From Candidatus Wukongarchaeum yapensis (GTDB lineage Archaea; Asgardarchaeota; Wukongarchaeia; Wukongarchaeales; Wukongarchaeaceae): a stretch of DNA of 20,370 nucleotides. The position numbers were made by a program, and so were the translations under genes. The notes under the pieces were generated by a model, which worked only from the letters and a program-made list of their open reading frames with translations, did not search any database and was not told where the DNA came from. Below, piece by piece: positions 2,619-20,370 of this stretch. The stretch covers positions 1-20,370 of the forward strand of contig JAEOSI010000017.1 in the NCBI GenBank assembly GCA_016840425.1, given 5' to 3'. The first letter of the stretch is position 1, and every line of letters starts with the position of its first letter.

Positions 2619-5012
2619 CTATTCTTCTTCATCGAATAATTGCTTCACATCCGGAAACATCGCCTCTCCCGGGAACTCTTCAGCTTCTCCTTCTTCCTTT
2701 TTTTCAGGCAATTCTTCCCTTACTTCTTCTGCTACTACTACTTCTATTGGTCCTTCAACCTCTTTTTTCATGGCTTCTTCTGCAGCTTTTTGTGCTTCAA
2801 CAGCTTTCCGGAATACCTCCAACACTAGAGCCTCTGCTGTGGCGAAGACTTTCAAGTCACCTGTCCATCTTTCAAGTAGATGACCGTATTGTTCTGCGAA
2901 CTTTTCTGCGAACTTCTTTGCATGTTTGTGGATTATGTGTAGGTCTTTTTCTGCCACCAAAGCTACTACGAACCGCTCTTGATGTTCGAGGAGGATCTTT
3001 CTGTCTTCATGGTCTACTGCGCGTAATCTCTGTTCTGATTGCATTGATTCGGCTACGAATTGTGAAATGGCGGAAATCATTCCTGTGACAAGAGCCGAGT
3101 CTACAGCCAGCTTGCTGAATGTGTAGTCGAAAGCACAGAGACCTTCGTTGCTGAAAACGAATAGATTGTGGAGGCTTTTCTCCCAACCTCGCTCTTCCAT
3201 TTTATGTTTAACGAACAATCCTGTGGGAGTGGATAGTGCTACGGCGCCTAGAAGTAGTATGTAAGGCAGCCAGCTGATCTCCTCTTTCTCAAGTCGAGGG
3301 ACGATTGTTAAAGATACAAGGGGAGTGTATCCTATCTCGACGCCGTTGCTCCAGAAGACTGTTATGTTATACTGTCCTTCTGTTTCCCAATCATCTGTAA
3401 TTTTGAAGTTTGACGAATAGAAGTAGCCATCTACGGCTTCAGTTATGTTTTCTTGTAGGAGAATGGTTCCGTTTGGAGCTAAAAGGGTTATTTCGCACCA
3501 ATCGTTAGTGACTCCTTCGGTGACAGGATTTCCAGCAGCATCAGCTATGAAGACGCTAATCCTAGCAGTTGATTCTATTTCAATTTCGTTTGTTGTGTGC
3601 CATGTATCGCCGGAAAGTTTCTCCGTTGTAACAGTTCGGAGATAATTTGGCGATGAGAAAACAGCTGTGTATTCTCCAGATGCGATAGAGATTGCAGGAA
3701 CTATGATGCAGTTATACTCCTTGTTGAAGACCGTCTTCGTACCAAAATTTATGCCGAGGGCATCTAGGTCTACTTCAGCTCCAGTAGGATCATATAGGGC
3801 TTCAAAAGTCCAATCACTCTCATATGTTAGGTAATTTTCCCTTACAAAAAGCGAGCTACCCATTAGGGTGTAGGATACGTTCCAAGTGATCTTAGTGGGT
3901 GATACTGAGTACTTGGTGGTAGATTCGTAGCTATTAATGAAATCTGTATAGGTGTAAAGGTTTAAGGTAGGTACAGGCGCATCAACAGTGACAGTGATAT
4001 TGATATCGTAGTTAAGTTCAGTCCAAGCGGTGTCAAAGTATAAGGTGTACTCGCCGATGTAGCCCTGCAGGGTATCTTTACGAAAGGTTGGCGTGTAGTC
4101 ACCAGCAAGACCGACATCAATGCCTGTGGTAACTGTAAATCGAGCGTTAAGAGTTGAGGGATTGATCATTTCGTTTAAACCGATTTTCATTATTAGATCT
4201 GTATCCTCATCTTTAGAATAGGTCTCCCAAGCAAAATTGGACGCATTGAAGAAACTCGTAGTACCGTTGTTTGCTCTCCCTGAAAGGACATTATTTTCCA
4301 AAATCCAAGAGGAAGCAGGCACATAAGAAAGCCCCGCGTCAGTGAACCAAAATATTGCAAAATGATAATTACCTTCATCCAAGACTAAATTCATGTCCGT
4401 TATATTAATCCATCCGGTCCAAATGGTTCCCGATGGGATGGTGTTCCGGAGAAAGCCGATGTAAATCATGTTTTGACTTTCAAAATTCTCCTTGAAAACA
4501 AGAACAAGATAGTCAATTTGATTCCCATAGTCAACTATACTATAGTTAAACCATAATGACACATTATAAAGCACGCTCATTTTCTCAACTTCAAATTCTT
4601 GGGCAGCTCCAGAAACATAACCACTTTCGAGATCATCGATCGTATTCAAATTCCAACTAACATTATTTCCTATGTTTTGATATGTTGAAATTGCAGAACT
4701 TTCATCAATAGCCGTAGTAACCATGCGAATTTTATCAGCGTAGAGATCAAGACCCCATAACTGAAAAGTGGTTGATAAACCCCTACCATCGCCACTTTCA
4801 GTCAAAGTGTTTGTTGAGAATCCCTGCTCCTCCTCCCTCTCTGGATAGACTATGAATGACTTCTGATTCCGAGTTTCTCCGGTGATCTCGGAGCTTTGAA
4901 GCTCGCTTGGAGCATTACTCATTCCAGTCTGAGAAATTATGAAGAAGCAACTTAAAGAAATTAAGAAGATAAATGTTAAGGCAAAAAGAGTATTAGATTT
5001 ATGAAAAACCAT
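2619..5012 (-). CDS. Single-pass membrane protein: signal peptide, large extracellular domain, TM helix, cytoplasmic longin-like domain, acidic tail (797 aa)
   Basis: Hydrophobic N-terminus; about 550 aa beta-rich region with 11 N-x-S/T sequons; TM ISWLPYILLLGAVALSTPTGLFV (about 3205-3276). The following domain (about 2810-3175), LHNLFVFSNEGLCAFDYTF...DSALVTGMISAISQFVAE...LRAVDHEDRKILLE...FVVALVAE...FAEKFAEQY, matches the pattern of Asgard longin-like domains. Glu/Lys-rich tail. GGAGAG upstream of the ATG. Confidence 0.75.
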   Translation of the reverse strand: MVFHKSNTLFALTFIFLISLSCFFIISQTGMSNAPSELQSSEITGETRNQKSFIVYPEREEEQGFSTNTLTESGDGRGLSTTFQLWGLDLYADKIRMVTTAIDESSAISTYQNIGNNVSWNLNTIDDLESGYVSGAAQEFEVEKMSVLYNVSLWFNYSIVDYGNQIDYLVLVFKENFESQNMIYIGFLRNTIPSGTIWTGWINITDMNLVLDEGNYHFAIFWFTDAGLSYVPASSWILENNVLSGRANNGTTSFFNASNFAWETYSKDEDTDLIMKIGLNEMINPSTLNARFTVTTGIDVGLAGDYTPTFRKDTLQGYIGEYTLYFDTAWTELNYDINITVTVDAPVPTLNLYTYTDFINSYESTTKYSVSPTKITWNVSYTLMGSSLFVRENYLTYESDWTFEALYDPTGAEVDLDALGINFGTKTVFNKEYNCIIVPAISIASGEYTAVFSSPNYLRTVTTEKLSGDTWHTTNEIEIESTARISVFIADAAGNPVTEGVTNDWCEITLLAPNGTILLQENITEAVDGYFYSSNFKITDDWETEGQYNITVFWSNGVEIGYTPLVSLTIVPRLEKEEISWLPYILLLGAVALSTPTGLFVKHKMEERGWEKSLHNLFVFSNEGLCAFDYTFSKLAVDSALVTGMISAISQFVAESMQSEQRLRAVDHEDRKILLEHQERFVVALVAEKDLHIIHKHAKKFAEKFAEQYGHLLERWTGDLKVFATAEALVLEVFRKAVEAQKAAEEAMKKEVEGPIEVVVAEEVREELPEKKEEGEAEEFPGEAMFPDVKQLFDEEE

Positions 5013-5193: not shown

Positions 5194-6396
5194 TTAGTTT
5201 TTCTTCAATTCACGAAGTTGTTTAATTAAAATCGGGACTATTTCAAGAATATCTCCAACAATCCCAAAATCAGCGACTTTGAATATTGGAGCATCTGGGT
5301 CCTTATTGATTGCTATGATGATGTCAGAAGAGCTCATTCCTACAAGATGTTGGATCGCTCCGGAGATTCCTAGGGCTATGTAGAGTTTTGGGCTTACGGT
5401 CTTTCCAGATTGGCCTACTTGGAAAGAATGGGGTAGCCATCCTAGATCTACTAGGGATCTCGAGCAGGACATTGTTCCATTTAGTTCTTCTGCTAATTCC
5501 TTGATTAATTCCAAGTTTTCTTTTGTTTGAATTCCTCGACCTGCGGAGATGAGGATATCAGCTTCTTCAATGGGAATAGTTTCCTCTTTTTGAGTAATGG
5601 CAGAATCAATGATCTTCGTCCGAATCCCTTTTGGATTAAGTTTAACAGGAATTTCTTTGATGGTTCCAGTTCGTTCAGGGTTAGGGGTTCCTTTGGGGAA
5701 CACATTGGGTCGGACTGTTGCTAGTTGGGGGCGTGTGTAGGGGGATAAGATGGAGGCCATAATATTTCCTCCAAAGGCAGGTCTGGTTTGAACTAGTTGT
5801 CGATCTTCGTTTATGTCCAGCCCTGTACAATCGGCAGTTAATCCCACTTTCAACCTTGCAGCAATTCTTGGTGCAAGGTCTCGTCCGGTCGGGGTGGCTC
5901 CGAATAGGATGATTGAGAATTTTTCTTGCATGATCACCCCGGCAATGATGTTGGTAAAACCTTCAGTAGAGTATTGTTCAAGAAGGGGGTGTTGGCATAA
6001 ATAGACTTTATCCGCTCCATGACTAATGAGGGTTTGAGTAAGTTGGGAGTTTTTTGCACCGAGTAAAATAGTGGATAGATCTTCTTCTAATTTGTCGGCT
6101 AGTATTCGACCTTTTTCGAGTATTTGGAGGGCTACGGGTTTAATTTGAGGTTCATTTTTTATTTCACATTCTGCAAAAATGCATACTCCTGAATATTTTG
6201 TTAATTCTTCTGGTGATAGCTGGGCGGGCCTTTCAATATTGAGGGCATGCTGGGGGCAGACGTTTACACAAGCTCCGCATAAGGTGCAATTTTCTAATAC
6301 TTTCGCTTTTTTATTTACAACAACTATGGCTGCGAAAGGACAGGTTTTCTCGCATAATTTGCAACCGTTACAAGCTTCTAGATCGATTTGAAGCAT
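5194..6396 (-). CDS. etfA: Electron transfer flavoprotein alpha subunit with N-terminal 2x[4Fe-4S] ferredoxin domain (LctC/CarE-like architecture)
   Basis: CNGCKLCEKTCP and CTLCGACVNVCP at the N-terminus; ETF-alpha motifs GRDLAPRIAARL, GLTADCT, QTRPAFGGN and QVGQSGKTVSPKLYIALGISGAIQHLVGM. AAGGAG RBS lies within the etfB 3' end. Confidence 0.95.
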   Translation of the reverse strand: MLQIDLEACNGCKLCEKTCPFAAIVVVNKKAKVLENCTLCGACVNVCPQHALNIERPAQLSPEELTKYSGVCIFAECEIKNEPQIKPVALQILEKGRILADKLEEDLSTILLGAKNSQLTQTLISHGADKVYLCQHPLLEQYSTEGFTNIIAGVIMQEKFSIILFGATPTGRDLAPRIAARLKVGLTADCTGLDINEDRQLVQTRPAFGGNIMASILSPYTRPQLATVRPNVFPKGTPNPERTGTIKEIPVKLNPKGIRTKIIDSAITQKEETIPIEEADILISAGRGIQTKENLELIKELAEELNGTMSCSRSLVDLGWLPHSFQVGQSGKTVSPKLYIALGISGAIQHLVGMSSSDIIIAINKDPDAPIFKVADFGIVGDILEIVPILIKQLRELKKN

Positions 6397-6401
6397 TTAT
6401 A

Positions 6402-7220
6402 TTACTCCTTGTCAACGAATACATTTTCTTGGAGGAATTCTATCAGTCTAGAGACGGCGGCTTCGGGATCGTCACTTTCGATTTTTTGCCCCCCAGTTCT
6501 ACTTTTAGGAGGGAAAATTTTGGCAACTTGAGTCGGAGATCCGCTCAAACCGAACCTTGAAGTATCTTTGCTCAAATCATCAGCGATCACGTTTTTAATC
6601 ACTTTTCTTCGCGCGTTAATTATTTCTTTAAAGGACGGAATTCTAAGGATGTTTGATCCACTGCTTACAGAGACGAGGGCTGGAAGTTTACATTCTACAA
6701 TCTCATAACCGTTTTCAGTCTCGCGTTCAACTTGAATTCTCCTTCTTTCCGGAATTAGATTAGTAGATGTTACGTAAGTAATTTGAGGTATTCCAAGGTG
6801 TTCGGCTAGTTCTGGGCCGACTTGTGCAGTATCGCCGTCGATGGCTTGTTTTCCTGTAAAAATTAAGGTGAAATCTTCTTCAAATTTTTGAATGGCTTCA
6901 CTTAAGGCTAGTGAGGTGGCTAATGTGTCCGCTCCGGCGAATTTTCGGTCACAAAGGAGGATCGCGCGATCAGCTCCTAGTTCTAAGCATCGTAAAAGGG
7001 CGCTCCGTGCTTGAGGAGGCCCCATTGTTAAAACTATAACTTCGACTTCCTCTCCTCCTCTTTCTTCTTGTTCTTTTTTGATTCTAATAGCTTCATCTAA
7101 TGCATATTCGCAAAATGGATTTAGTATGGACTGAACTCCTTCTCTTATGAGTGTACCTGTTTCTGGGTTTATCTTCACTTCACCAGCAGGAACTTGTTTT
7201 ATACATACGATTATCTTCAT
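6402..7220 (-). CDS. etfB: Electron transfer flavoprotein beta subunit, bifurcating-type motifs
   Basis: MKIIVCIKQVP, DRKFAGADTLATS and GKQAIDGDTAQVGP motifs. The start is either ATG 7220 or GTG 7226; both follow AAGGAG. Confidence 0.95.
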   Translation of the reverse strand: MKIIVCIKQVPAGEVKINPETGTLIREGVQSILNPFCEYALDEAIRIKKEQEERGGEEVEVIVLTMGPPQARSALLRCLELGADRAILLCDRKFAGADTLATSLALSEAIQKFEEDFTLIFTGKQAIDGDTAQVGPELAEHLGIPQITYVTSTNLIPERRRIQVERETENGYEIVECKLPALVSVSSGSNILRIPSFKEIINARRKVIKNVIADDLSKDTSRFGLSGSPTQVAKIFPPKSRTGGQKIESDDPEAAVSRLIEFLQENVFVDKE

Positions 7221-7235
7221 TGTCACTTAGGCTCC

Positions 7236-8870
7236 TTAAATATTTACCATATTACCGATCGAAAAAAGACCAGTTGGGTCGAGTGCTTGCTTGACTTCGA
7301 TTATTTGGCGTCTTTTATCTTCATCGAACATGATGTTAAAATATTCTTTTTTGATTTTTCCTATTCCGTGTTCGGCAGAAACTGTGCCTCCTAAGGAGAC
7401 CGCTTTTTTGGCAAAAACCTTGTAAAGTTCTTTTGCTTTCGCAAGTTCTTTTTCATCTTTTGGTAAAATGTTAATGTGGAGATGATTGTCCCCGATATGG
7501 CCGAAAATGACATGTTCTAGGTTTGATTCCCTAAGTTTTTCCCGATAAAACGATAAGATTCCAGCAAGATTGGTCTCAGGGATTATTGGCACAGCCATAT
7601 CGGTTCCAAGTTTATGAATAGTTGGATTTTTCTGTTTTCTTTCAGCGATAATGGCGTTTACTGTTTCGGGAAGGAGGTGTCGAAAGGCCGTTATCCTATC
7701 TATTTCTCGATCTTCATAACAAGCCCAGGTTTGGTCCATTGAACTATTATTTTTAATTGCAATTGTTTCTAATCTCTCGTAAAGTTCGGGAAGACTATCT
7801 TCATTATAACTGATCTCGAAAATTATTGCCGCGACATTTTTTGGGATTGGCGGCATATTAACTAGGGGGGGATCTGAAATCTGTTTTTTTCTTAAGAGTT
7901 TGAGAGAGTCTGGGCATAAGTATTCTAGAAATTCGGTTTTTAAACTTGAATCTTTTAGGCGGATATCATTCACAAAACTGGCTGCATCCATTTCAGTCGG
8001 GAAAAAAGTGGTAACAGCAATAACGTTTTCTGGTTTTTCTGTTATCCAAACTTCGACCTCCGTTATTACTCCTAAAATGCCTTCAGATCCGATGAATAGA
8101 TCGATGAGGTCCATGGAAGGTTCTGTGAAAAGGCCAGCTGCATTCTTAACATTAGTTCCTATTCTATAATAGGGGATAGAAAACGTTTTTGTTTCTCCTG
8201 CTGTGTTTTGGATAGTAAAAGTTCCTTCTGGTGAGGCGTGATATTTTCCTCGGGGAATGTCTAATATTTCCCCGTTTGCAAGGACTAGCCGGACCTTGCG
8301 AACCCATTTTCGAGTGGCTCCATATTTGTAGGAAAGAGAGCCTGAAGCATTAGTAGCTACGGTTCCTCCGAGATGGGCAGTCTTCTCTGTTGGATCTACG
8401 GGATACCAGTAAGTCTTTTCATCTTGGCTGAATTTATCCAGTAGTTCCTTTTGCTTTTCTTCTAATTCTGGAAACTTTTTCTGGATAACCTTTTCATTTA
8501 GTTCTTTAAGCGAAACTCCTGGTTGGCTTCTTACGTACCACTGTTTGGTTTTTTCATCGAATCCTAGTCCTAGAATGGCGTTAAGCTTTTCTAAGGAGAG
8601 GATAGCGCCTCCAAAGGGGACACATCCCCCAACAATACCAGTTCTGGCAGCTGAGATAGTGATAGGGACTCCTCTTTTCTCCATTTCTTGTACAACTGTA
8701 ACTATTTCTTCCTCATTTTTTGGAAAAAAAAGCCATTCTGCATAGCCCTTAAGTTTTGATTCATCGATTGTATATGAGGAAAACATCGATTCAATGTTCT
8801 CTTTTCCTTCGATTTTTCTTACTTTTTCAAAAGTAACTCCTGGCGAATATCCTGTTCTAATAAAATCCAT
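7236..8870 (-). CDS. FAD-linked D-lactate/glycolate (D-2-hydroxyacid) dehydrogenase, LctD/Dld/GlcD family
   Basis: FAD-binding PCMH region PVDPTEKTAHLGGTVATNASG and FIGSEGILGVITE; C-terminal FGHIGDNHLHINIL and GGTVSAEHGIGKIK substrate/metal-site motifs. ATG 8870 is 5 nt after AGGTGA (ORF-track GTG at 8879). The exact substrate cannot be determined from sequence alone. Confidence 0.85.
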   Translation of the reverse strand: MDFIRTGYSPGVTFEKVRKIEGKENIESMFSSYTIDESKLKGYAEWLFFPKNEEEIVTVVQEMEKRGVPITISAARTGIVGGCVPFGGAILSLEKLNAILGLGFDEKTKQWYVRSQPGVSLKELNEKVIQKKFPELEEKQKELLDKFSQDEKTYWYPVDPTEKTAHLGGTVATNASGSLSYKYGATRKWVRKVRLVLANGEILDIPRGKYHASPEGTFTIQNTAGETKTFSIPYYRIGTNVKNAAGLFTEPSMDLIDLFIGSEGILGVITEVEVWITEKPENVIAVTTFFPTEMDAASFVNDIRLKDSSLKTEFLEYLCPDSLKLLRKKQISDPPLVNMPPIPKNVAAIIFEISYNEDSLPELYERLETIAIKNNSSMDQTWACYEDREIDRITAFRHLLPETVNAIIAERKQKNPTIHKLGTDMAVPIIPETNLAGILSFYREKLRESNLEHVIFGHIGDNHLHINILPKDEKELAKAKELYKVFAKKAVSLGGTVSAEHGIGKIKKEYFNIMFDEDKRRQIIEVKQALDPTGLFSIGNMVNI

Positions 8871-8963
8871 TAAATTCACCTGTAATATCGATCTTGACTT
8901 TGGTGCATCAGTTTTCGTAATAGGATTGGTTTTTTAGGCGGATTATATATGTTTTTTCTTTTT

Positions 8964-10004
8964 CTAATAGTTGTTTGGTCCTATCATGGTGTTTAAGAGT
9001 TGGAAGTCTTCTTTTCTTTTTGCAAAAACGCCGACATTTCCAAGCCTTATATTTTTAAGACCTACGCGTTTTGCTAAGATAAAGGCTTCGATCATCTCAT
9101 GAATCGTTGGAGATCTTACATTACTCATCTTATATATTGGGAAAAAAGCTAATATGCAGAACGGGATCTCTGGGTCCACTTCTTTTAGAATTTCCGCTAT
9201 TTTTCTTATTTGTTCTGCGTCAACCCATCCTGGTATAAGGAGGCTTAACACTTCTAATACAAAGCCCATATCTAAAATCATTGCAGGTAGTTCTAATATT
9301 CTCTCATTTGAAGCCCCTGTTAGCTTTTTATGCACTTTTGAGTCGTATGCTTTTATGTCAAGCCAAAAAGAATCTATTTCCGCACTTTGAAACGCTTCTA
9401 AATTTTTCGGCGTCAATCCATACCCGTTTGTTTCGATAAGCATCCAAAAATCACTTAATTCTTTTTTAACGATATTCGAGACTTCACAATAATATTCTGG
9501 TCGGCATGCTAGATCTCCGCCTGTGAAGGCTGCTATATTTCTCGCAGGCCCAAAACCTTGAGGGCTTAAAACTATTCTTTCTTGCTCCAGTAAGCCAGGA
9601 CAAAAATCGGATCTTTTACCGTATATTATGCAAGATCCACATCCTCTACAGAGGTCGTGGGCGTGCCATGCTGTTGCCCGATGTCTTGGCTCTTTAAAAG
9701 TTATTTTTTCCGCGTAAGAAATTATTTCCTCAGCAATTTCTTCGGAGGTATACCATTGACCGTTTGCAATTTGGGTGAACTCCCATGAGTGACATTTTAA
9801 ACATGACCAGTTGCAACCACTTTGATAGATGGAGTAGTAGTGCTCAGGGCGGGATAAATGAGCGGATTTTATGAGACGTTCAAGGCCTTTTCCTGTTTTT
9901 CTAAGTGTTATTTCGCACGCGCTCCCGCTCCTAGTAGCAGCTATTGTTTTGCATGCTCCTCTTTTAAAACCTTGAAGCTCTAGGTTGCATTTTGAGTTAA
10001 CCAT
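8964..10004 (-). CDS. Radical SAM protein, PflA/glycyl-radical-activating-enzyme-like fold
   Basis: GCNWSCLKCH (CxxxCxxC), AFTGGD, IETNG, LDIKA and GNVGVF motifs. The start is uncertain: ATG 10004 follows a purine-rich GAAGG; the ORF track starts at 10106. Confidence 0.85.
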   Translation of the reverse strand: MVNSKCNLELQGFKRGACKTIAATRSGSACEITLRKTGKGLERLIKSAHLSRPEHYYSIYQSGCNWSCLKCHSWEFTQIANGQWYTSEEIAEEIISYAEKITFKEPRHRATAWHAHDLCRGCGSCIIYGKRSDFCPGLLEQERIVLSPQGFGPARNIAAFTGGDLACRPEYYCEVSNIVKKELSDFWMLIETNGYGLTPKNLEAFQSAEIDSFWLDIKAYDSKVHKKLTGASNERILELPAMILDMGFVLEVLSLLIPGWVDAEQIRKIAEILKEVDPEIPFCILAFFPIYKMSNVRSPTIHEMIEAFILAKRVGLKNIRLGNVGVFAKRKEDFQLLNTMIGPNNY

Positions 10005-10124
10005 AAGCCTTCTCTTCTCATAACCTTCTTTAACATTACTATGATAACAGATAGAAAACAAAATAATAAAACTAGGATTAGACAGACAAGAACCGCTTTT
10101 ATTCAATCATTTTATTTGCTTTCT

Positions 10125-10641: not shown

Positions 10642-12060
10642 TTGGTGAGATTGTCTCCGTTAACGGTTCATGGTTTGTTGCCGGGTATTAACTGTAAGAA
10701 GTGCGGGGAGGTGACTTGTCTTGCTTTTGCTTCTAAGCTTGTTGCGAGAACGGCTGAAGTTGAGGCTTGTACTCCTCTTTTTGAGGAGGAGCAGTATGCT
10801 GAGAAGAGGCAAAAGCTGATTGAGTTGATTACGCCTCCGGTTGTTTCTGTGAAGATTGGTGGAGGTGAAAGGACCGTTGTTGTAGGCGGTGAGGAGGTTT
10901 TATATAGGCATGATTTGACGTTTTATCATCCTTGTGCTTTGGCTATTGATATTAGTGATGAGATGGATGAAGAGACGGTAAAGAAGAGGGCTGAGTGGGC
11001 TGATAGGTTAAAGATTGAGCGTATAGGCAAGGTTTTAACTTTAAACCTTATAGCGGTTAGGGATGTTTCGGATGATCCTGAAAAGTTTGCCAAGGTTGTT
11101 TCATGGGTTCGGGAATCTGCTGGTTTACCGTTGATTTTGTGTTCTTATAATCCTGAGGCGATTAAGGCGGCTTTGGATGTATGCGAGATGGATAGACCGT
11201 TAGTGTATGCTGCGACTGAGAATAACTGGCAAGAGATCGCTCCTCTTGTCAAAAAGTATAACGTTCCTGTTTGTGTTTCAGCTCCAGATAATTTAACATT
11301 GCTAAAACAGTTAGCTGTAACGCTTCAAGCCTATGGAATAAAGGATATAGTTCTTGATCCTGGCACTTTTATTGATAACGGTGGCTTGAATAGGACTCTT
11401 CAGAACTTTGCGCTTTTAAGGCGTGCTGGAATAGAACAGGAAGAGGAAGGGGTAGGGTTCCCGTTGTTGGGCATACCTGCCATAGCATGGGCTAATGGGG
11501 AAGATTCTGTGACGAACGCTTATACGGAGGCTATAGTTGCATCGATGCTTATAGCAAAGTATGCGGATATTTTGATTCTTCACAGCGAGGATGTATGGTC
11601 GCTTCTCCCCGTGTTCACGCTTAGGCAAAACATCTACTCTGATCCAAGAATACATCCCGCGATAGATCCGGGCATTAGGGAGATTGGTAACCCGACTCCA
11701 GAGTCACCAGTATTTGTGACTGCGAATTTTGCCCTTACATATCACACTATAGAGTCAGATCTTGAAGATGGGAAGATAGATTCTTGGATTCTTGTTGTGG
11801 ATACTGAAGGCATTGGTATAGAATCAGCGGTAGCAGGAAGGCAATTTTCCGCAGTTAAAATAAAAGAGGCTATTGATGAGTTTGATTTAGAATCTAAGGT
11901 AAGTCATAGGGTTATGATGTTGTCTGGCCTTGCGTCAAGGATAAGCGGTGAAACTGAAGAGGAAACAGGATGGAAAGTGATCGTTGGTCCGAAAGACTCA
12001 GGGGGCCTCAAGGCAATGAACTTAAAGGAGCTTTGGGAGAAAAAAGCACAAGAAGAATAA
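10642..12060 (+). CDS. cdhE: Corrinoid iron-sulfur protein large subunit (CODH/ACS gamma subunit)
   Basis: N-terminal LLPGINCKKCGEVTCLAFA...C Fe-S domain; GGEEVLYRHDLTF; TIM-barrel region with DIVLDPGT; C-terminal corrinoid domain PVFVTANFALTY...LVVDTEGIGIESAVAGRQF...VGPKDS. AAGGAGG 10 nt before the TTG start. Confidence 0.95.
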   Translation: MVRLSPLTVHGLLPGINCKKCGEVTCLAFASKLVARTAEVEACTPLFEEEQYAEKRQKLIELITPPVVSVKIGGGERTVVVGGEEVLYRHDLTFYHPCALAIDISDEMDEETVKKRAEWADRLKIERIGKVLTLNLIAVRDVSDDPEKFAKVVSWVRESAGLPLILCSYNPEAIKAALDVCEMDRPLVYAATENNWQEIAPLVKKYNVPVCVSAPDNLTLLKQLAVTLQAYGIKDIVLDPGTFIDNGGLNRTLQNFALLRRAGIEQEEEGVGFPLLGIPAIAWANGEDSVTNAYTEAIVASMLIAKYADILILHSEDVWSLLPVFTLRQNIYSDPRIHPAIDPGIREIGNPTPESPVFVTANFALTYHTIESDLEDGKIDSWILVVDTEGIGIESAVAGRQFSAVKIKEAIDEFDLESKVSHRVMMLSGLASRISGETEEETGWKVIVGPKDSGGLKAMNLKELWEKKAQEE

Positions 12061-12813: not shown

Positions 12814-13425
12814 GTGAGCGAAGAAGTTTCAAAAATTGATTTGATAAAAGAAGAAGTCGCTGGTACTTCTAGTATTGTTGGTGATTTGGTTTTAGAGTTT
12901 GAAAAGATTTTGGATGAAGGAGAGCGTAAAACTGTTGAAGATATGATTCGTGATTCGCGAGAAACTTGGTTTCCTGCAAAGCTCATAATAAAATGGGAAG
13001 AAAAGGGAGAAGAGAGGATAATAAGGCTTGTCGCTGTTGGTGGCGTGAATTACGTCACGCTTTATGATAAAGGTGATGGGTATTATGAAGGAGAACGGCT
13101 TTTCTTGCTCATAAAAACTATTAAAGATGTTTTTCCAAGCCTTTCGAGGATTGGATTCTCCATAGTAACTCCTTTCGAATGGATGGAAAAATGGCTTGAA
13201 AAGGGAAAACCTGTTAAGTCTCCTATATCGATAAAGTTTGGTTATAAATGGGATGTAGGAGATACTAGCAGGCTTTTTGGAGGTTACGGTGCAGATCGAA
13301 TAATGGAATTTTCGACACAAAAAGGGGAAGAATTCGAGCCAGTTGAACTGTTAAGTATGCTTAGAAACCTTAATAAAAGGTCTCCATTAAATGAAATAAC
13401 TGCTCTCCTAATGTTCTCCATATAA
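12814..13425 (+). CDS. Hypothetical protein (203 aa)
   Basis: Open frame filling the gap between known genes; GGTGG 6 nt before the GTG; soluble alpha/beta-like composition; no family recognised. Confidence 0.7.
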   Translation: MSEEVSKIDLIKEEVAGTSSIVGDLVLEFEKILDEGERKTVEDMIRDSRETWFPAKLIIKWEEKGEERIIRLVAVGGVNYVTLYDKGDGYYEGERLFLLIKTIKDVFPSLSRIGFSIVTPFEWMEKWLEKGKPVKSPISIKFGYKWDVGDTSRLFGGYGADRIMEFSTQKGEEFEPVELLSMLRNLNKRSPLNEITALLMFSI

Positions 13426-13507: not shown

Positions 13508-14803
13508 TTATATCTTTTGGAGAAGGTTTTGGAGGATTTCTTTATCGGGTAAGCAGTTTTCACTCGGAGAATCGAGGAACTTTCTCAATTTTTTTGTTTG
13601 CATGTCCATTCTTATCATCGTGCCTTCTGTCTCTACCCCGGTTATAGTAGCGGGAATAGCTACTGAAGCCTTTTTAACGGTTAAATTCATCTGGGTATCT
13701 ATTACGATTAAAGGAATATTTTGTAATTTTTCCACTAATTTTTGGGGAAAACTGGCGAAAGGATTCGCGCCAATGATCAACGCTGCATCGCAATCCCCGT
13801 TGATTAAGGCTTCTGTCACCGTTGTCTTCTCCGGAGGATTTTTTGAAAAATCTATACCGTAACCATAGGGCACTCCAGCCATCTTTTTTGCTGCTAGGTT
13901 AAATCCTAGCATGTTACTGTGTCCTATCATGGGCATTAGTGAAAATTGCCCCTTGAGATTTGGGTGTTTTACGAGTTTTATTAAACCTTCAATGTTTTCC
14001 TTGAAATTTTCTTGCTGGAGGATTCCAAGGCCGAAAAAGATTGTGCCAAACTGTGCTTTTTTCATCATTTTACCAAAATCGATGATGTCTTTTTTCATGA
14101 TCCCTCCTACATTTTCAGGCAATTCTTTGCCGGATAGATATTCAATTAAAGCTTTTATTAGGTTTAAGTCCTTTTCTGGCTCTATTTGTAAGAATAGGTT
14201 TATTCCTTTGGCGGATCTTGTTTTTATGACGTCAACAACGACGACTTCCCTTTCCAATCTTCCTGTGATTCTGACTTTTCCCCGGGGAAAAACGGTGTAT
14301 CGGCTTAGGTGTCTGCTGTGAGAATCGGCAGGGTTAGACCCCCAATAGACCACAAGATCTGCCATATCCCCTACTTCTTCTAAAGTGGGACATTTGAACT
14401 CCTCCCTGGAAATCTCTTCTATCAATCTTAAAGAAATTCCATGACAAATGCTTGAAGTGGAATCTATGACACCTTCAAGCTTTTCAGCAAGTTGTATCCC
14501 TACTTCTTGGGCTTCATAACTAACGCTGCCCCAACCGTATAACAACGGCTTTTTTGCTCGTGAAAGAAGATTACAAGCCACATCTAATGCCTCGCTTAAA
14601 TGAGCGGGCTTTAACCTTCCTTCCTCCAAGATAAGGGGGTTAGTTAATCGATTGGGAGAGTTAACAAGTTTTAAAAAAGCATCCCCCCGCATGCATGCGT
14701 TATAAGTGGAAACAATTTTTCCATCATTAATAACGCAAAAAACATCATCACAAAGCAAAGAGCAATGAGGACAAACAATCCTTTCTACCTGTCCCAAAGC
14801 CAA
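13508..14803 (-). CDS. fwdB: Formylmethanofuran dehydrogenase subunit B-like Mo/W-bis-pterin protein
   Basis: CPHCSLLCDD...ACMRG [4Fe-4S] motif; PLLYGWGS; DSTSSICHG (metal-ligand Cys, TGT at 14444-14446); VVYWGSNPADSHSRHLSRY; GVETEGTMIRMD. GGTGA upstream of the TTG start. Confidence 0.92.
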   Translation of the reverse strand: MALGQVERIVCPHCSLLCDDVFCVINDGKIVSTYNACMRGDAFLKLVNSPNRLTNPLILEEGRLKPAHLSEALDVACNLLSRAKKPLLYGWGSVSYEAQEVGIQLAEKLEGVIDSTSSICHGISLRLIEEISREEFKCPTLEEVGDMADLVVYWGSNPADSHSRHLSRYTVFPRGKVRITGRLEREVVVVDVIKTRSAKGINLFLQIEPEKDLNLIKALIEYLSGKELPENVGGIMKKDIIDFGKMMKKAQFGTIFFGLGILQQENFKENIEGLIKLVKHPNLKGQFSLMPMIGHSNMLGFNLAAKKMAGVPYGYGIDFSKNPPEKTTVTEALINGDCDAALIIGANPFASFPQKLVEKLQNIPLIVIDTQMNLTVKKASVAIPATITGVETEGTMIRMDMQTKKLRKFLDSPSENCLPDKEILQNLLQKI

Positions 14804-15085
14804 GATCTTTCACCTTTCATAATTTAAAATAGTAAACGTCTTTAATTACTCTGATAACTAAAGTAACTTACATAATTTTAAAGTTGAATGCCGTAAGAAG
14901 CTTTATACTCTCCTTAAAAAGCTAGGTTAATACGTTATTACAGCAGCTATAACCATATCTTATAGATTTGATAATATGTTTCATAATTATATTAACTGCA
15001 ATTTAATATCTCATTTTTTAAATTATATTTTATAACAATATTAGGCAACTAAATCATTAATAATTATAATATAATTATAATACCG

Positions 15086-15586
15086 CTATATTAGAATTTT
15101 TATTGCTTCTGTGAAACAGTATATTTCGCACACGCGGCATTGGGCATAGGAAAGTTTTTCCGTGTCGGCGTACCTGCGGCATTTTGTGAGGTCGATTATT
15201 TTTGCTTTTCCATCCTTTACAACATAGATAACGTTTTCCTCTTTTTCTGGGGCTACCCCTATGCCTGCGGATGATTCTGGGTTTTCTGCAACGTTTACTG
15301 GGCAAACAATCAGGCAGTTACCGCATCCGATGCATTTTTCTTCTTCAAGAATTATTCCTGTTTCTAAGGCCTCGCTTAGAGGGGTTAGGAGTTCTTGGAG
15401 CTTTTTTAACTGTTTTTCGTAGGCTTTTTCTTCAAAGAGAGGCGTGCATTTTTCGAGTTCGATTTGGCGTCCTAGGAGTTTAACTGCAAAGGCCATACAT
15501 CCTGATTCGCCGCATTTTTTACAATTAGTTTTAGGAAGGAGTTGGAACACTTCGAAAGCATTCAATTTTGTCAAAAATGGCACCAC
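15086..15586 (-). CDS. fwdG: FwdG-like ferredoxin with N-terminal CdhE/RnfB-type Fe-S domain
   Basis: LLPKTNCKKCGESGCMAFA...CTPL domain followed by CIGCGNCLIVCPVN (typical of FwdG) and a second cluster motif C-x13-CRVCEIYC. The start may be TTG 15574, which follows GTGGTG. Confidence 0.75.
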   Translation of the reverse strand: MVPFLTKLNAFEVFQLLPKTNCKKCGESGCMAFAVKLLGRQIELEKCTPLFEEKAYEKQLKKLQELLTPLSEALETGIILEEEKCIGCGNCLIVCPVNVAENPESSAGIGVAPEKEENVIYVVKDGKAKIIDLTKCRRYADTEKLSYAQCRVCEIYCFTEAIKILI

Positions 15587-15737
15587 ACTGTTAAGAGTGT
15601 TGAGAAAATGTGTTTTGAAAGTTTATTAATTTTACTTTAAAGCCTAGTAGATTATTTAAAATTAAAAATTAGGTATTATCTTTAATCTTTTATAGAGATA
15701 TTACTTAAAGTTTATAAGAAAAAGGATGAAAAATTAT

Positions 15738-15745
15738 TTTATAAA
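15738..15745 (+). promoter_or_regulatory. Candidate TATA box (TTTATAAA) in the fwdG / hdrA divergent spacer
   Basis: Canonical octamer preceded by a purine-rich GATGAAAAA stretch, about 125 nt upstream of hdrA. Confidence 0.3.
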
Positions 15746-15870
15746 CAGGTTTTTGTTGCTTTAGCTCCTATCTTTTAACGATTTCATTTTTGTATCTTTA
15801 TCGAGTATGTTTTTTGGGTGTTGTTTGAATTAATATTAAGGGTTTGATCAGTTTTCGGGGTGTTTTTTAG

Positions 15871-18249
15871 GTGAAAGTCGGAGTTTTTGTTTGTCATTGT
15901 GGGTTTAACATTGCGAGCACGGTTGATATAAACGAAGTTGTTTCAGAGTTAAAGAAGGATCCTGAGCTTTTATGTTTTGATCATGATTATGTTTGCTCAG
16001 CTGGTGGTTTAGGGTTGATCAAGGAAAAGATTTTGGAGGAAACGCTTGAAAGGGTTGTTGTTGCGAGTTGCACTCCAAAACTTCATGAATTCCTTTTTAG
16101 ACAAACTTTAGAGAAGGCTGGTTTAAATCCTTATTTTCTTGAGGTTGCCAATATAAGGGAGCAGTGTAGTTGGGTTCATTTTGATGACCCTAAGAGGGCT
16201 ACAAGAAAGGCTATAGTTCTTATAAAAATGGCTGTGGAGAAGGTTAAGCTTCAGTCGTCTTTAAGTGTTAGAAAGGTTCCTGTTGAGCAAAGTGTTTTAG
16301 TGGTTGGTGGGGGTGTTGCAGGGATAACTGCAGCTTTAAATGTGGCTGATGCCGGGCTTAAGGTTTATTTGGTTGAAAGAGAGCCCAGTATTGGGGGTCA
16401 TATGGCTCAATTTGATAAAACGTTTCCTACGATGGATTGTTCGATATGTATCCTTGCCCCTTTAATGGTTAGGGTTTATGAACACCAAAACATCACTTTG
16501 TTGACTAATTCCGAAGTTTTGCAAGTGAATGGGTCTGTTGGTAAGTTTGAAGTAGAGGTTTTGAAGTATCCTCGTTATGTTGATGAAGAAAAATGTAGTC
16601 AATGCTATCAGATATGTACTGATCCTTGTCCTATAGAGGTTCCTAATGAGTTTGATTTGAATATGTCAAAAAGGAAGGCGATATATGTTCCGTTCCCTCA
16701 AGCGGTACCTTTGGTTCCTTTGATAGATGAGGAGAACTGTGTAGGTTGTAGGGCTTGTGAGCTTGTTTGCGACCTTGATGCGATAGACTTTGATCAAAAA
16801 CCAGAAAAACTGGCGTTGAAAGTCGGTGCAATAATAGTGGCTACGGGGTATGAGACTTATGATGCTAGCAAGAAAACTGAATATGGATATGGTAAGTATC
16901 AGAATGTTATCACGTCCATTGAACTTGAACGTATGCTCACGCCTTTTGGTCCTACAGAAGGTAATGTGATTCGCCCTACTGATGGAGAATATCCGAAAAA
17001 CGTTGTTTTTGTCCAATGTGTCGGTAGTCGTGATGAAGAAACTCCTTATTGTTCTAGGGTTTGTTGTTCTTACGCTATAAAACAGGCTCAAGAGATCAAG
17101 GAGAGGATTCCTGGAGTTGAAGTTTACATATTCTACCAAGATATTCGTACTTTTGGCAAGGGGCAGGAGGAAGCGTTTAGAAAAGCGCTTGATGAGTATC
17201 GTATAAGGTTTATTCGAGGAAGGGTTAGTAAAATAATCGAGGATAATAAGAGTAAAAGTTTGTATGTTCTTGCTGAAGATACGTTGGTTGGGCGTCCTGT
17301 GGAGGTTTTTGCGGGCTTAGTTGTTTTATCTGTGGGGCTTCAACCGCCAAAGGGTACTGATAAAATTGCTTCTCTATTAAAGGTGAGTAGAAGCGTAGAA
17401 GGTTTTTTGTTAGAGGCCCATCCTAAGTTAAAACCTGTTGAAACCCACAAAGCGGGGATATTCTTAGCTGGGTGTATTCACGGTCCAAAAGATATCCAAG
17501 ATACTGTTTCCCATGCGGGGGCTGCGGCCTCTAAGGCTATAAGTTTACTTATAGGAGGAGAGATCACCGTTGAAAAAATTACCCCTGTGATCAGTTTAGA
17601 AGACTGTATTAAGTGTGGTTTATGCGAAAAGGCTTGTGATTTTGGGGCTATTATTGTGACGAAAGGGGGAGCTCAGGTTAATGAAGCTGCTTGTTTTGGG
17701 TGTGGCGCTTGTGCTGCGACCTGCCCAACTTCCGCCATAGATATGCCCATTTCAAAAGACGCTCAAGTGTTGGCACAAATCGATGCCGCTATTAAAGAGA
17801 AGTGGGAGTTTCCGTTGATAATCGGTTTTTTATGTAATTGGTGTGGTTATAATGCTGCAGATATAGCAGGGGTAGGTAAACAAAAGTATCAGCCTAACAT
17901 GTTACCGATTAGACTTTCATGTTCTGCTAGTGTTGACCCTTCTTATGTTTTTCACGCCCTTTTTAAAGGGGCTGACGGTGTATTAATCGCTGGATGTTAT
18001 CCGCAAGACTGCTATTATAGTACGGGTTTCAAGAAGGCAAAACAAAGGGTTTCAATCATAAAATCAACGTTAAACGAGTTAGGTATTAGCAAGGAGAGGG
18101 TTCACATTATTAGTTCGAGCGCTTCGGAAGGAAAGAAATTTGCGAAGGAGGTTGATGAGTTTATAAAAAAGATAGAAAAGCTTGGCATAATGGGGACAGA
18201 ACTAGAGAGTGAAATTATGAGCATAAAAGTTTCTAAAGAGGAGGAATGA
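15871..18249 (+). CDS. hdrA: Heterodisulfide reductase subunit A fused to C-terminal MvhD/HdrF [2Fe-2S] domain
   Basis: VGVFVCHCG, ANIREQCSWVH, VGGGVAG (FAD), DKTFPTMDCSICILAP, ITSIELERM, QCVGSRD, YCSRVCCSYAIKQA and GPKDIQDTV motifs; inserted and C-terminal 2x[4Fe-4S] domains. MvhD-like IIGFLCNWCGYNAADIAG...GADGVLIAGC...DC from about 17812. Confidence 0.95.
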   Translation: MKVGVFVCHCGFNIASTVDINEVVSELKKDPELLCFDHDYVCSAGGLGLIKEKILEETLERVVVASCTPKLHEFLFRQTLEKAGLNPYFLEVANIREQCSWVHFDDPKRATRKAIVLIKMAVEKVKLQSSLSVRKVPVEQSVLVVGGGVAGITAALNVADAGLKVYLVEREPSIGGHMAQFDKTFPTMDCSICILAPLMVRVYEHQNITLLTNSEVLQVNGSVGKFEVEVLKYPRYVDEEKCSQCYQICTDPCPIEVPNEFDLNMSKRKAIYVPFPQAVPLVPLIDEENCVGCRACELVCDLDAIDFDQKPEKLALKVGAIIVATGYETYDASKKTEYGYGKYQNVITSIELERMLTPFGPTEGNVIRPTDGEYPKNVVFVQCVGSRDEETPYCSRVCCSYAIKQAQEIKERIPGVEVYIFYQDIRTFGKGQEEAFRKALDEYRIRFIRGRVSKIIEDNKSKSLYVLAEDTLVGRPVEVFAGLVVLSVGLQPPKGTDKIASLLKVSRSVEGFLLEAHPKLKPVETHKAGIFLAGCIHGPKDIQDTVSHAGAAASKAISLLIGGEITVEKITPVISLEDCIKCGLCEKACDFGAIIVTKGGAQVNEAACFGCGACAATCPTSAIDMPISKDAQVLAQIDAAIKEKWEFPLIIGFLCNWCGYNAADIAGVGKQKYQPNMLPIRLSCSASVDPSYVFHALFKGADGVLIAGCYPQDCYYSTGFKKAKQRVSIIKSTLNELGISKERVHIISSSASEGKKFAKEVDEFIKKIEKLGIMGTELESEIMSIKVSKEEE

Positions 18250-18255
18250 AATGCT

Positions 18256-19590
18256 TTGACAGTGTTTGAGCAAGTTACTCGAAATTTTGACGTTATTGAT
18301 ACAAACTTTTTGCTTACGTGGAAGGTCAGAAAAAAGGATAAAAGCCTCCTTTATTTTAGTGAAAAATGTGTAGGTTGCCAGCTTTGCCAAGAGATTTGCC
18401 CTGTTTCAGCCATAGAATATGGACCGATACCGCAAATCGCTACGGGGGAAATAGAAGCCCCTTATATATTGATCGATTTAGACAAGTGTATTTTTTGTGG
18501 TTTGTGTGCGGTTGTTTGCCCGACTCATGCCCTATTATTTGCTTTTAATAAGAAACAGATCGATTTATTAAACGATTATCCAAAGATTTCAGGCCGGATA
18601 GAGATCAGTGATGAATGTATCCCTTGTAAATTATGCGACCTTGTTTGTCCAACCAAGGCGTTTAAATTAGAGTTGGAGGTTGAAAAAAAGGAAAATCTTG
18701 TAACGTATGAGGAAGAGATACCGCCTGAAAAGGTAGAGGGAGCTATAATCATAGATAAAGAAAAGTGTACTTATTGTGGTCTTTGTGAGGAACTTTGTGA
18801 AGCGATTAAGATTACGTGGGTTGAGCCTTCAGGGGAGTTTCTCAGGCCTGGTATTGATATTATTGTAGATGAGGATAGGTGTGATTACTGTAATTTATGT
18901 GCAGAGTTATGTCCATCCGAAGCCGTAAAAGTCGAATGTAAAACCCCTCTTGAGAGGACAGTTAGAGAACCGAATATTAGGGGTTCGCTTGTTTTGAATG
19001 AGGATAAATGCATTTACTGTGGTTGGTGTGCTTTTGTGTGCCCTGTAGAAGCCGTTAAGTATGAGAAGCCTTTTGAAGGAGAGGTAACGGTTTCAAATCT
19101 TGAAAAATGTGACCCTGTTGGGTGCAATGCTTGTATAAAGATCTGTCCTACAAACGCTTGGTATATCCCGAAACGTTCCTTGGAAGATGAAGTAACAGAA
19201 AAAATCGCGGTGAACAAGGATCTTTGCGTTTTTTGTGGTGCCTGTCAAAATTCTTGTCCTGAAAACTTGATAACGGTCACAAGAAAAGAGATACATGTAG
19301 AAGAAGAAATTCCACATAGACCTTGGACAACATCATGGAAAAGAGATTTAAACAGATTGATAAATGTTCCTTTGCCCGTCAAAAACTTTAGAGAGATAAG
19401 CTTAAAGCCGGTAGAGCCTGTTGAAGAACTGCCAAGCCCCATAACTCCTATACAGAAAATTTCAGAAAATATGCAAAATCTTCTCGAAGAAAAGGCAAAA
19501 ATCATAGAAGAACGCTTAGAAACTCCAAAATTTAGGAGGCTTCTTGAGGGGTTTACCAGTCGTAAACCAAATTCCTCCTCTAAACCCTAA
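18256..19590 (+). CDS. fwdF: Polyferredoxin with eight [4Fe-4S] motifs, FwdF-like
   Basis: Eight Cys motifs counted: CVGCQLCQEICP, CIFCGLCAVVCP, CIPCKLCDLVCP, CTYCGLCEELCE, CDYCNLCAELCP, CIYCGWCAFVCP, CDPVGCNACIKICP and CVFCGACQNSCP. FwdF-like linkers (GPIPQIATG, KPFEGEV). Starts 6 nt after the hdrA stop. Confidence 0.88.
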   Translation: MTVFEQVTRNFDVIDTNFLLTWKVRKKDKSLLYFSEKCVGCQLCQEICPVSAIEYGPIPQIATGEIEAPYILIDLDKCIFCGLCAVVCPTHALLFAFNKKQIDLLNDYPKISGRIEISDECIPCKLCDLVCPTKAFKLELEVEKKENLVTYEEEIPPEKVEGAIIIDKEKCTYCGLCEELCEAIKITWVEPSGEFLRPGIDIIVDEDRCDYCNLCAELCPSEAVKVECKTPLERTVREPNIRGSLVLNEDKCIYCGWCAFVCPVEAVKYEKPFEGEVTVSNLEKCDPVGCNACIKICPTNAWYIPKRSLEDEVTEKIAVNKDLCVFCGACQNSCPENLITVTRKEIHVEEEIPHRPWTTSWKRDLNRLINVPLPVKNFREISLKPVEPVEELPSPITPIQKISENMQNLLEEKAKIIEERLETPKFRRLLEGFTSRKPNSSSKP

Positions 19591-19626: not shown

Positions 19627-20022
19627 TTAGGAAGGGATTATAGGGGTTATTTTTTCCGTGGTTCGTTTTATGGTGGCTTTTATGTTTTTATAACGGGGTA
19701 TGCTACTTCCTTCAGGGGGTCCTGTGAGAAGGTTGGCCCAAGGACCTTTGGGTATTGCTATTACTCCTTTTTGAACCCCGTTTTCTTTTACTGCTCTAAC
19801 TACAACTAAACCGTAATTTGTCATTATTTTAACTCTGTCTCCTTCTTTTAAATTCAACACCTTGAAGTCTTCTTCGCTTATTTTACACAAAGCCATTGTT
19901 TCAACATATTCCTCGCTATTTTCAGCAAAGTTTTCCCTAGCCCCTTGTTCCGCTGTCCTTATAGTGATTAAAACGACATCTATCTCAATCTCTCCTAAAA
20001 GCGACCTATCAACTAAAGACAT
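19627..20022 (-). CDS. fwdD: Formylmethanofuran dehydrogenase subunit D-like (molybdopterin dinucleotide-binding domain)
   Basis: LITIRTAEQG, LNLKEGDRVKIMTNYGLVVVRA, GVIAIPKGPWAN and PRYKNI match the FwdD pattern. Confidence 0.88.
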   Translation of the reverse strand: MSLVDRSLLGEIEIDVVLITIRTAEQGARENFAENSEEYVETMALCKISEEDFKVLNLKEGDRVKIMTNYGLVVVRAVKENGVQKGVIAIPKGPWANLLTGPPEGSSIPRYKNIKATIKRTTEKITPIIPS

Positions 20023-20232: not shown

Positions 20233-20370
20233 TTGTCCGATTATTTGGATTTTGATAAGCTGGCTGAGAATGCAAGTAGTTGGGAGTGGGCTTTTTACGA
20301 TAAGATTAGGAAGAGGAATATTTTTGCATCTTTTAATTTTACAAAGTGTTATCAGTGTGGTAAGTGTGTA
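20233..20370 (+). CDS. hdrC: 5' part of an HdrC-like Fe-S protein, running off the window end (not in the ORF track)
   Basis: Frame 1 from TTG 20233 (AGGGGT 6 nt upstream) reads MSDYLDFDKLAENASSWEWAFYDKIRKRNIFASFNFTKCYQCGKCV. CYQCGKC is the typical first cluster motif of HdrC. Other GlpC/HdrD-like Fe-S proteins cannot be excluded from 46 codons. Confidence 0.7.
   Translation, partial: MSDYLDFDKLAENASSWEWAFYDKIRKRNIFASFNFTKCYQCGKCV

Follow-up and report, generated by a model that had tools for sequence, protein, structure and literature searches.

An HdrA2-type 'Fwd-Hdr' gene cluster with a long-form FmdF-family polyferredoxin in a Wukong-like Asgard archaeon

Introduction

Could an archaeon outside the methanogens hard-wire electron bifurcation to a formylmethanofuran dehydrogenase (Fwd), in the manner of the Hdr-Fmd supercomplexes that are wired through the polyferredoxin FmdF (PMC13580544)? 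The question is raised by contig JAEOSI010000017.1 of Candidatus Wukongarchaeum yapensis, which was analysed over its whole 20,370 nucleotides (nt) and is called the window hereafter (C145 in our numbering). In the window, an hdrA-mvhD fusion gene is followed directly by the gene of an eight-cluster polyferredoxin (pfd). A first-pass annotation had read this pair as a ferredoxin-free conduit from Hdr to Fwd. We searched the genome (2.16 Mb, 277 contigs, 92% complete) and compared the locus with those of other archaea. Our preferred reading, which we hold at a probability of roughly 60%, is that the window carries a 'Fwd-Hdr' cluster of the HdrA2 type whose products are predicted to assemble into a single soluble complex of four parts. 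The cluster is a further member of a cluster type already described, not a new system.

Results

The HdrA-MvhD fusion, the polyferredoxin and HdrCB

The fusion gene (15871..18249, + strand; 792 amino acids (aa)) encodes a full-length HdrA joined to a complete MvhD domain (Pfam FlpD positions 1-123 of 123, 150 bits). Against the NCBIfam model of HdrA2 (NF040770), the protein aligned along positions 1-776 of 777 and scored 1059.6 bits, just under the cut-off of 1100. HdrA chains in the PDB matched its residues 2-641 with 593-723 bits, and MvhD chains matched residues 644-773 with 90-123 bits. The FAD site is intact. The Glu of ELERM and the Lys of YAIK, to which the first-pass annotation had drawn attention, are in place: the motifs lie at HdrA residues 351 and 401, and alignment to 5ODC chain A pairs E353 with Glu356 and K404 with Lys409, which we take to be residues at the bifurcating FAD. 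The genome holds three more HdrA loci.

Both open reading frames (ORFs) of the pair proved real, and the 6-nt gap that had been reported between them was confirmed: the TGA stop of hdrA-mvhD is followed by AATGCT and then by the TTG start of pfd (18256..19590, +; 444 aa), with GAGGA 10 nt upstream of that start. The count of eight [4Fe-4S] clusters was likewise right. The 33 Cys of the polyferredoxin include seven CX2CX2CX3C motifs and one CX4CX2CX3C motif, arranged in four ferredoxin domains, and all 32 ligand Cys are invariant in an alignment of 75 sequences.

An hdrC-like start had been noted at 20233, and it is the 5' end of hdrC (20233..20370, +), inside which the assembly breaks. The start of contig C103 repeats ~140 nt of the window end and carries on with the rest of hdrC (197 aa, Fer4_17/Fer4_8), then hdrB (320 aa, two CCG domains with intact motifs), a DUF166 gene and a radical SAM gene. 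This hdrC-hdrB continuation occurs in the same order at two other loci (L024 and L027). The first of these belongs to the nearest public relative, a metagenome-assembled genome (MAG) labelled Candidatus Hodarchaeota, whose HdrA is 88% identical and whose gene order is identical. The 'Hodarchaeota' label of this MAG may conceal a Wukong-like, H2-using lineage.

Family, fold and phylogeny of the polyferredoxin

The view that the polyferredoxin resembles FwdF/FmdF and not MvhB was upheld by sequence scores, structural matches and a tree. When phmmer was run against PDB sequences, FwdF/FmdF chains scored 207-226 bits over nearly the whole core (best match 9SFI_T, 225.6 bits), compared with 97 bits for MvhB. 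An AlphaFold2 model built with 75 homologues reached a mean pLDDT of 89. Foldseek matched this model at full length only to M. wolfeii FwdF (5T5M_F; TM 0.73, E = 3e-35) and M. hungatei FmdF (7BKB_K; E = 9e-27), with no further full-length match at E < 1e-3. An MvhB/EhaP identity was ruled out by the PDB scores, the tree and Foldseek, and from its sequence and modelled fold we assign the protein to the FwdF/FmdF family. Against the curated FwdF model (NF042909), it scored 298.1 bits over positions 5-334 of 336, below the 375-bit cut-off; we attribute the shortfall to its place in a separate clade.

The tree comprised 66 sequences and was computed with IQ-TREE in its quick mode. Its outgroup branches are long and the MvhB-like outgroup was non-monophyletic, so only the clade that holds the window protein and its neighbourhood are interpreted here. 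This long-form clade (~430-450 aa, SH-aLRT 99) unites Asgard, Thermoproteota-named (TACK), Methanosarcinales, ANME-2, Methanoperedens and Syntropharchaeia sequences. Class II FmdF (representative P0140, Methanoculleus) is the sister of this clade with a support of 87, and class I FwdF, represented by Methanobacterium FwdF (P0129), branches more basally. The position fits the published view that class II FmdF derives from Asgard or Bathyarchaeia-like donors (PMC13580544). A C-terminal extension of ~80 aa is confined to the long-form clade; within it, residues 404-430 of the window protein are modelled with confidence as a helix. Of the loop-2 Cys pair of class I, C-x-x-C in the class I representatives, the window protein keeps C228 only.

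The window gene is the single FwdF-like gene of its genome: no second FwdF-like polyferredoxin above 40 bits was found, in a search not aimed at MvhB itself. As a side observation, the homologues of two Asgard genomes (L144, on G127:C4, and G098:C170) each contain one in-frame TGA, for which a selenocysteine codon, a frameshift and a sequencing error are all candidate explanations.

Fwd-like genes around the pair

Three flanking genes that the first-pass annotation had passed over encode an FwdB-like, an FwdG-like and an FwdD-like protein. The first, fwdB2 (13508..14803, -), encodes a divergent, Hdr-linked paralogue of formylmethanofuran dehydrogenase subunit B. It passes the TIGR03129 cut-off (425.7 versus 327.8 bits), its best PDB match is 5T5I_B (307 bits, full length), and it is 38% identical to FwdB1, encoded elsewhere in the genome on contig C47. 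We aligned it to M. wolfeii FwdB, checking the residue numbering against PMC11656701. The sequence SICHG of FwdB2 keeps Cys118 and His119. In its PMIGH, His290 is preserved but Ile replaces the catalytic Arg288; FwdB1 reads PMRGH here and retains the Arg. The start of the N-terminal cluster motif is kept in all complete Hdr-linked FwdB2 homologues.

The second gene (15086..15586, -) encodes a FwdG-like FeS protein of 166 aa with three clusters (Cys 22/25/30/47, 85/88/91/95 and 136/150/153/157; PF04060 and Fer4). Residues 77-134 match FwdG/FmdG chains in the PDB (5T5I_G, 9SFI_U, 7BKB_L). The N-terminal FeS domain is of CdhG/RnfB type: residues 8-74 match the large subunit of the corrinoid FeS protein, the RnfB FeS domain is also matched, and the identity to the N-terminal FeS domain of CdhG is 36-56%. 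The placement of this gene beside fwdB2 is conserved in Asgard and other archaeal metagenome loci. The third gene, fwdD2 (19627..20022, -), is convergent with pfd and encodes a paralogue of the molybdopterin-binding subunit D (Pfam Molydop_binding, 53.7 bits; NF042908 (FwdD), 79.8 bits, under the cut-off of 175); the gene keeps this position at loci from other Asgard families.

An AT-rich intergenic region of 284 bp (15587..15870) separates the divergent fwdG-like/fwdB2 and hdrA-pfd units. The kilobase that contains it (15001-16000, G+C 0.336) is the poorest in G+C of the window, and the region is inferred to hold a putative promoter.

Conserved synteny across Asgard and other archaea

The adjacency of hdrA and pfd, which the first-pass annotation had made a test of its reading, is conserved. 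A Pfd homologue is present in 88 of 400 Asgard genomes, as a single copy in each. Of 29 Asgard loci, 24 have hdrA immediately 5' of pfd, its MvhD end nearest, at Pfd identities of 37-86%. When 20 Asgard loci were extended, the full layout, in which fwdB2 and the G-like gene run divergently from hdrA-pfd and fwdD is convergent, in many cases with hdrCB beyond, was seen in 9-10 of them, spread over six families. Seven others have hdrA and pfd without fwd genes, five of these with hdrC-hdrB alongside, and in the remaining three pfd stands next to a radical SAM gene with no hdrA. The window itself encodes a 380-aa radical SAM protein (8964-10106, -); its relatives (26-32% identical) adjoin pfd at L251, L257, L258 and L260, and three of these four loci have no hdrA next to pfd.

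The metagenome scan extended the pattern. Methanosarcinales-type contigs carry hdrA-pfd(-hdrCB), and on one Methanosarcinaceae-type contig (L163) fwdB and a G-like gene lie upstream of the pair. Three further loci (L181-183), on contigs that the tree places with TACK sequences, show the order G-like-fwdB-hdrA-pfd-fwdD-hdrCB. The scan also returned the class II order fmdF-hdrCBA-mvhD-fwdDB. A search of the phylum of locus L029 ('Halobacteria archaeon') gave no match among 133 small genomes.

Because the hdrA-pfd adjacency is old and widespread, a physical link between HdrA and the wire is likely. By the same reasoning, the recurrence of the layout in about half of the 20 Asgard loci and on metagenome contigs makes the predicted complex of Hdr, wire and Fwd-like subunits likely. 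No Asgard family with Pfd lacks FwdA. Joint occurrence of the two proteins among the 400 Asgard genomes was rejected as evidence: it does not discriminate, the Pfd-bearing genomes being a subset of the FwdA-bearing ones.

Comparison with described clusters and complexes

Kohtz et al. (Sci Adv 2025) described a 'Fwd-Hdr' cluster in the cultured Thermoproteota methanogen Ca. Methanonezhaarchaeum YNP3N and proposed formate oxidation for it (PMC12700198). The Methanosarcina hdrA2(MA2868)-pfd(MA2867) operon has been known since 2010, its pfd still without a function (PMC2838876, PMC5296606, PMC4561719). The window matches both the former cluster (PMC12700198) and the latter operon (PMC5296606, PMC2838876), and the arrangement is therefore not new; the window adds one example, in a Hodarchaeota-labelled, Wukong-like genome, to a described type.

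With the YNP3N cluster (PMC12700198), the window shares a second FwdBD by HdrABC, an FwdF polyferredoxin and FwdG, a separate FwdABCD with Wood-Ljungdahl genes, and the lack of FdhAB and MvhABG at the Hdr operon. The two differ in that YNP3N is an Mcr-bearing methanogen of the Thermoproteota, whereas no mcrA was found here, and in that the window genes form two divergent units with fwdD convergent. The missing Arg288 goes unmentioned in the YNP3N paper (PMC12700198), and our literature searches returned no description of this cluster in Asgard archaea or of the missing arginine.

The HdrA2B2C2 system of Methanosarcina has in common with the window an HdrA-MvhD fusion followed directly by a polyferredoxin. 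Long-form polyferredoxins of the Methanosarcinales, known as named proteins of MAGs and isolates and from metagenome loci with hdrA immediately 5' of the gene, share the clade and the C-terminal extension of the window protein; MA2867 itself is placed in this clade from its published description and its relatives. Unlike the window, where hdrCB adjoin, M. acetivorans has hdrC2B2 unlinked. CoM-S-S-CoB is the disulfide that the Methanosarcina enzyme reduces, using F420H2 or ferredoxin (PMC5296606, PMC2838876, PMC4561719).

Two structurally characterised architectures bear comparison. The Fdh-Hdr-Fmd supercomplex of M. hungatei (7BKB), like the class II clusters, contains the same kinds of subunit (HdrABC, MvhD, FmdF, FmdG, FmdB and FmdD), and its FmdG is also long (7BKB_L, 146 aa). 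In contrast to the window, class II has FwdB of the canonical type, MvhD as a separate protein and an FmdF of ~390 aa that lacks the C-terminal helix, and its complex includes FmdA, FmdC and FdhAB. The M. hungatei complex is a solved structure, whereas the long-form type is known here from genes and a single-chain model. With the class I complexes, (Mvh-Hdr)2-Fmd4 and Hdr-Vhu-Fwd (9SW6, 9SFI; PMC13580544, PMC13518236), the window protein shares the eight-cluster FwdF core. Class I requires an MvhB bridge and the loop-2 Cys pair of FwdF for tetramerisation (PMC13580544, PMC13518236); of that pair, the window has the one Cys named above.

Fwd, hydrogenase and methanogenesis genes elsewhere in the genome

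The canonical Fwd genes lie on contig C47 (locus L115, 957-9599) in the order fwdD-fwdB-fwdA-fwdC-ftr, together with a small HdrC-like gene and a group-1-type NiFe hydrogenase (large subunit of 614 aa, small subunit). This gene order agrees with the Wukongarchaeota contig drawn by Liu et al. (bioRxiv 10.1101/2020.10.19.343400). The fwdDBAC-ftr operon contains no fwdF or fwdG gene. The Ftr-like protein scored 161 bits versus a cut-off of 297. One MtrH-like gene and two FrhB-like genes are also present.

Pfam and NCBIfam profile scans confirmed that the window has no mvhAG or fdhAB. The earlier remark that no hydrogenase lies nearby thus stands for the window but not for the genome, where contig C98 carries MvhAG-like genes and one for a maturation protease; the MvhAG-like pair falls short of the VhuA/VhuG cut-offs and is unlinked to the window cluster. 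Contigs C108 and C81 add a 3b-type hydrogenase set and a NuoD-like gene, respectively. The group-1-like NiFe, MvhAG-like, 3b-like and NuoD-like genes together ruled out an organism devoid of hydrogenases. No formate dehydrogenase alpha subunit was found in the genome. McrA was not found in the 92%-complete genome either.

Discussion

A predicted four-part complex

In the complex that we favour, HdrA-MvhD with HdrC and HdrB would be a flavin-based electron-bifurcating or confurcating core. The eight-cluster polyferredoxin would act as the built-in wire for the low-potential electron, the three-cluster FwdG-like protein would hand the electron onward, and the divergent, probably repurposed FwdB2/FwdD2 pterin module would take it. 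From the gene content and its conservation we infer a physical assembly, this direction of electron flow and a terminal reaction at the pterin end. Candidates for the electron donor are the MvhAG-like hydrogenase, F420H2 or another.

Of the conduit proposed in the first-pass annotation, one part stands: Fwd-like genes do flank the pair, here and in the loci with the full layout. A CO2-fixing conduit of the methanogen type is not supported, as these Fwd subunits are a divergent second copy with Ile at Arg288, and FwdA and FwdC are encoded elsewhere, on C47. Given the Arg288-to-Ile change and the separate operon for FwdA and FwdC, CO2 reduction, formate oxidation and electron exchange with carbon monoxide dehydrogenase/acetyl-CoA synthase (CODH/ACS) are all candidates for the terminal reaction. 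We rank first the option that the canonical FwdB1D1AC of C47 is supplied by the wire and the G-like subunit as well, which would allow ferredoxin-free conversion of CO2 to formyl-methanofuran; the lack of an F or G gene in the C47 operon is a point in its favour. Second comes an exchange of electrons between the altered FwdB2D2 and the neighbouring CODH/ACS, and third a role of FwdB2D2 as a formate-oxidising donor.

If the complex exists, hard-wired, ferredoxin-free bifurcation would extend from methanogens to non-methanogenic Asgard archaea, and the polyferredoxin associated with HdrA2 in Methanosarcina, without an assigned function for 15 years, would gain a role.

Evidence against the complex, and alternative readings

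Several observations weigh against a complex of this kind. FwdA and FwdC are single copies and are absent from the Hdr-linked cluster. Since no Mcr was found, the organism has no known source of heterodisulfide. Mch (PF02289) was not found in the 92%-complete genome, despite the presence of FwdABCD, an Ftr-like protein and cdhG. In one Asgard family without any Pfd homologue, canonical FwdA is present in 129 of 135 genomes, and hence Asgard Fwd does not in general depend on this wire. The authors of PMC13580544 moreover think it unlikely that FmdF groups other than classes I and II form supercomplexes of the known architectures. The pterin end raises a further objection: Arg288 is present in none of 13 Hdr-linked FwdB2 homologues, and in five of the 13, from two Asgard families, Cys118 and His119 have been lost as well. 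The corresponding Arg is essential in formate dehydrogenases. Its loss makes standard CO2/formate catalysis unlikely in the Hdr-linked FwdB copies, and, judged from these sequences, the conserved role of the FwdB2 end is probably not CO2/formate catalysis. The consistency of the loss is in itself a testable clue to some other chemistry.

These residues also bear on the reading closest to the methanogen model, in which FwdB2D2 borrows FwdA and FwdC from C47 as an isoenzyme and reduces CO2 to formyl-methanofuran with electrons bifurcated by HdrA. The score of FwdB2 above the curated FwdB cut-off, its retained metal-ligand residues (Cys118, His119 and His290) and N-terminal cluster motif, and the presence of FwdA in all Pfd-bearing Asgard families speak for it, as does the sharing of subunits between the Fwd and Fmd isoenzymes that is established in Methanothermobacter. 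So does the linkage of the C47 fwdDBAC-ftr genes to a group-1 NiFe hydrogenase, as in the Wukongarchaeota contig described for H2-dependent acetogenesis (bioRxiv 10.1101/2020.10.19.343400). Against it stand the Ile at Arg288, a position that aligns by shared fold with the formate dehydrogenase Arg, the lack of that Arg in every Hdr-linked homologue examined, and the lack of FwdA and FwdC in the cluster, and we consider this reading improbable. The same substitution argues against formate chemistry of any kind and so against the proposal, published for this cluster type (PMC12700198), that FwdB2D2 is the donor: it would oxidise internal formate, and HdrA would split the electrons between a disulfide and ferredoxin, as suggested for Methanonezhaarchaeum. 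A search of the genome for a further formate dehydrogenase alpha subunit found none, and the cluster holds no other donor gene, both in line with the proposal. In the solved complexes, however, the donor docks on MvhD and FmdF is the low-potential output (PMC13580544), and we give this role of FwdB2D2 very little credence.

A link to CODH/ACS has a different basis. The window gene cdhG (10642..12060, +), for the gamma subunit of CODH/ACS, a corrinoid FeS protein (PF03599, 433 bits; PRK04165, 555 bits), lies 1.4 kb from fwdB2, and six other Asgard loci encode CdhA no more than a few kb from the cluster. This proximity, together with the similarity of the G-like N-terminal domain to that of CdhG and its matches to corrinoid FeS chains in the PDB, supports a possible electron link. 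One could thus picture a dedicated low-potential electron supply or sink, running from HdrA through Pfd and the G-like protein to a catalytically reduced FwdB2D2 scaffold and on to the CO2/CO site or to the reductive activation of the corrinoid protein; the Cys and His losses in some FwdB2 lineages would fit such a relay. However, the argument is one of synteny, and ~1/3 of the Fwd-flanked loci have no cdh gene within 8 kb. Nor is any Hdr or Fwd protein known to interact with CODH/ACS, and pfd of M. acetivorans is dispensable for electron transfer from CODH/ACS to HdrA2B2C2 (PMC5296606). We regard this dedicated supply as somewhat less probable still than the borrowing of FwdA and FwdC, and as clearly more plausible than the formate donor.

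Within our preferred reading of a four-part complex, a more far-reaching proposal is tentative and, on balance, doubtful: HdrA2, the long-form Pfd, the G-like protein and an Arg-less FwdB2D2 may constitute a distinct bifurcating enzyme, with the pterin end repurposed for a non-formate substrate or for docking or relay to CODH/ACS. Such an enzyme would be common to Asgard archaea, other archaea (probably TACK) and Methanosarcinales, and related to the precursor of the class II methanogen D3 supercomplex. If this were true, it would show how non-methanogenic archaea with the H4MPT Wood-Ljungdahl pathway make or dispose of electrons of very low potential.

Other genes in the window

Three further regions of the window are of note. 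Between a methyltransferase gene and fwdB2 lies an ORF of 203 aa (12814-13425, +) that is free of Cys and has no family match; it is 91% conserved at the equivalent place in the sister genome. On the opposite strand (5194-8879, -), genes for a GlcD-like FAD oxidase (547 aa), EtfB (274 aa) and EtfA (400 aa) stand in tandem, a layout seen in electron-bifurcating lactate/2-hydroxyacid dehydrogenase-Etf systems, and the EtfA carries an N-terminal two-cluster ferredoxin domain. Near the start of the window, two adjacent ORFs of 797 aa each (219-2612 and 2619-5012, both -) have no Pfam or NCBIfam match and show no detectable similarity to each other.

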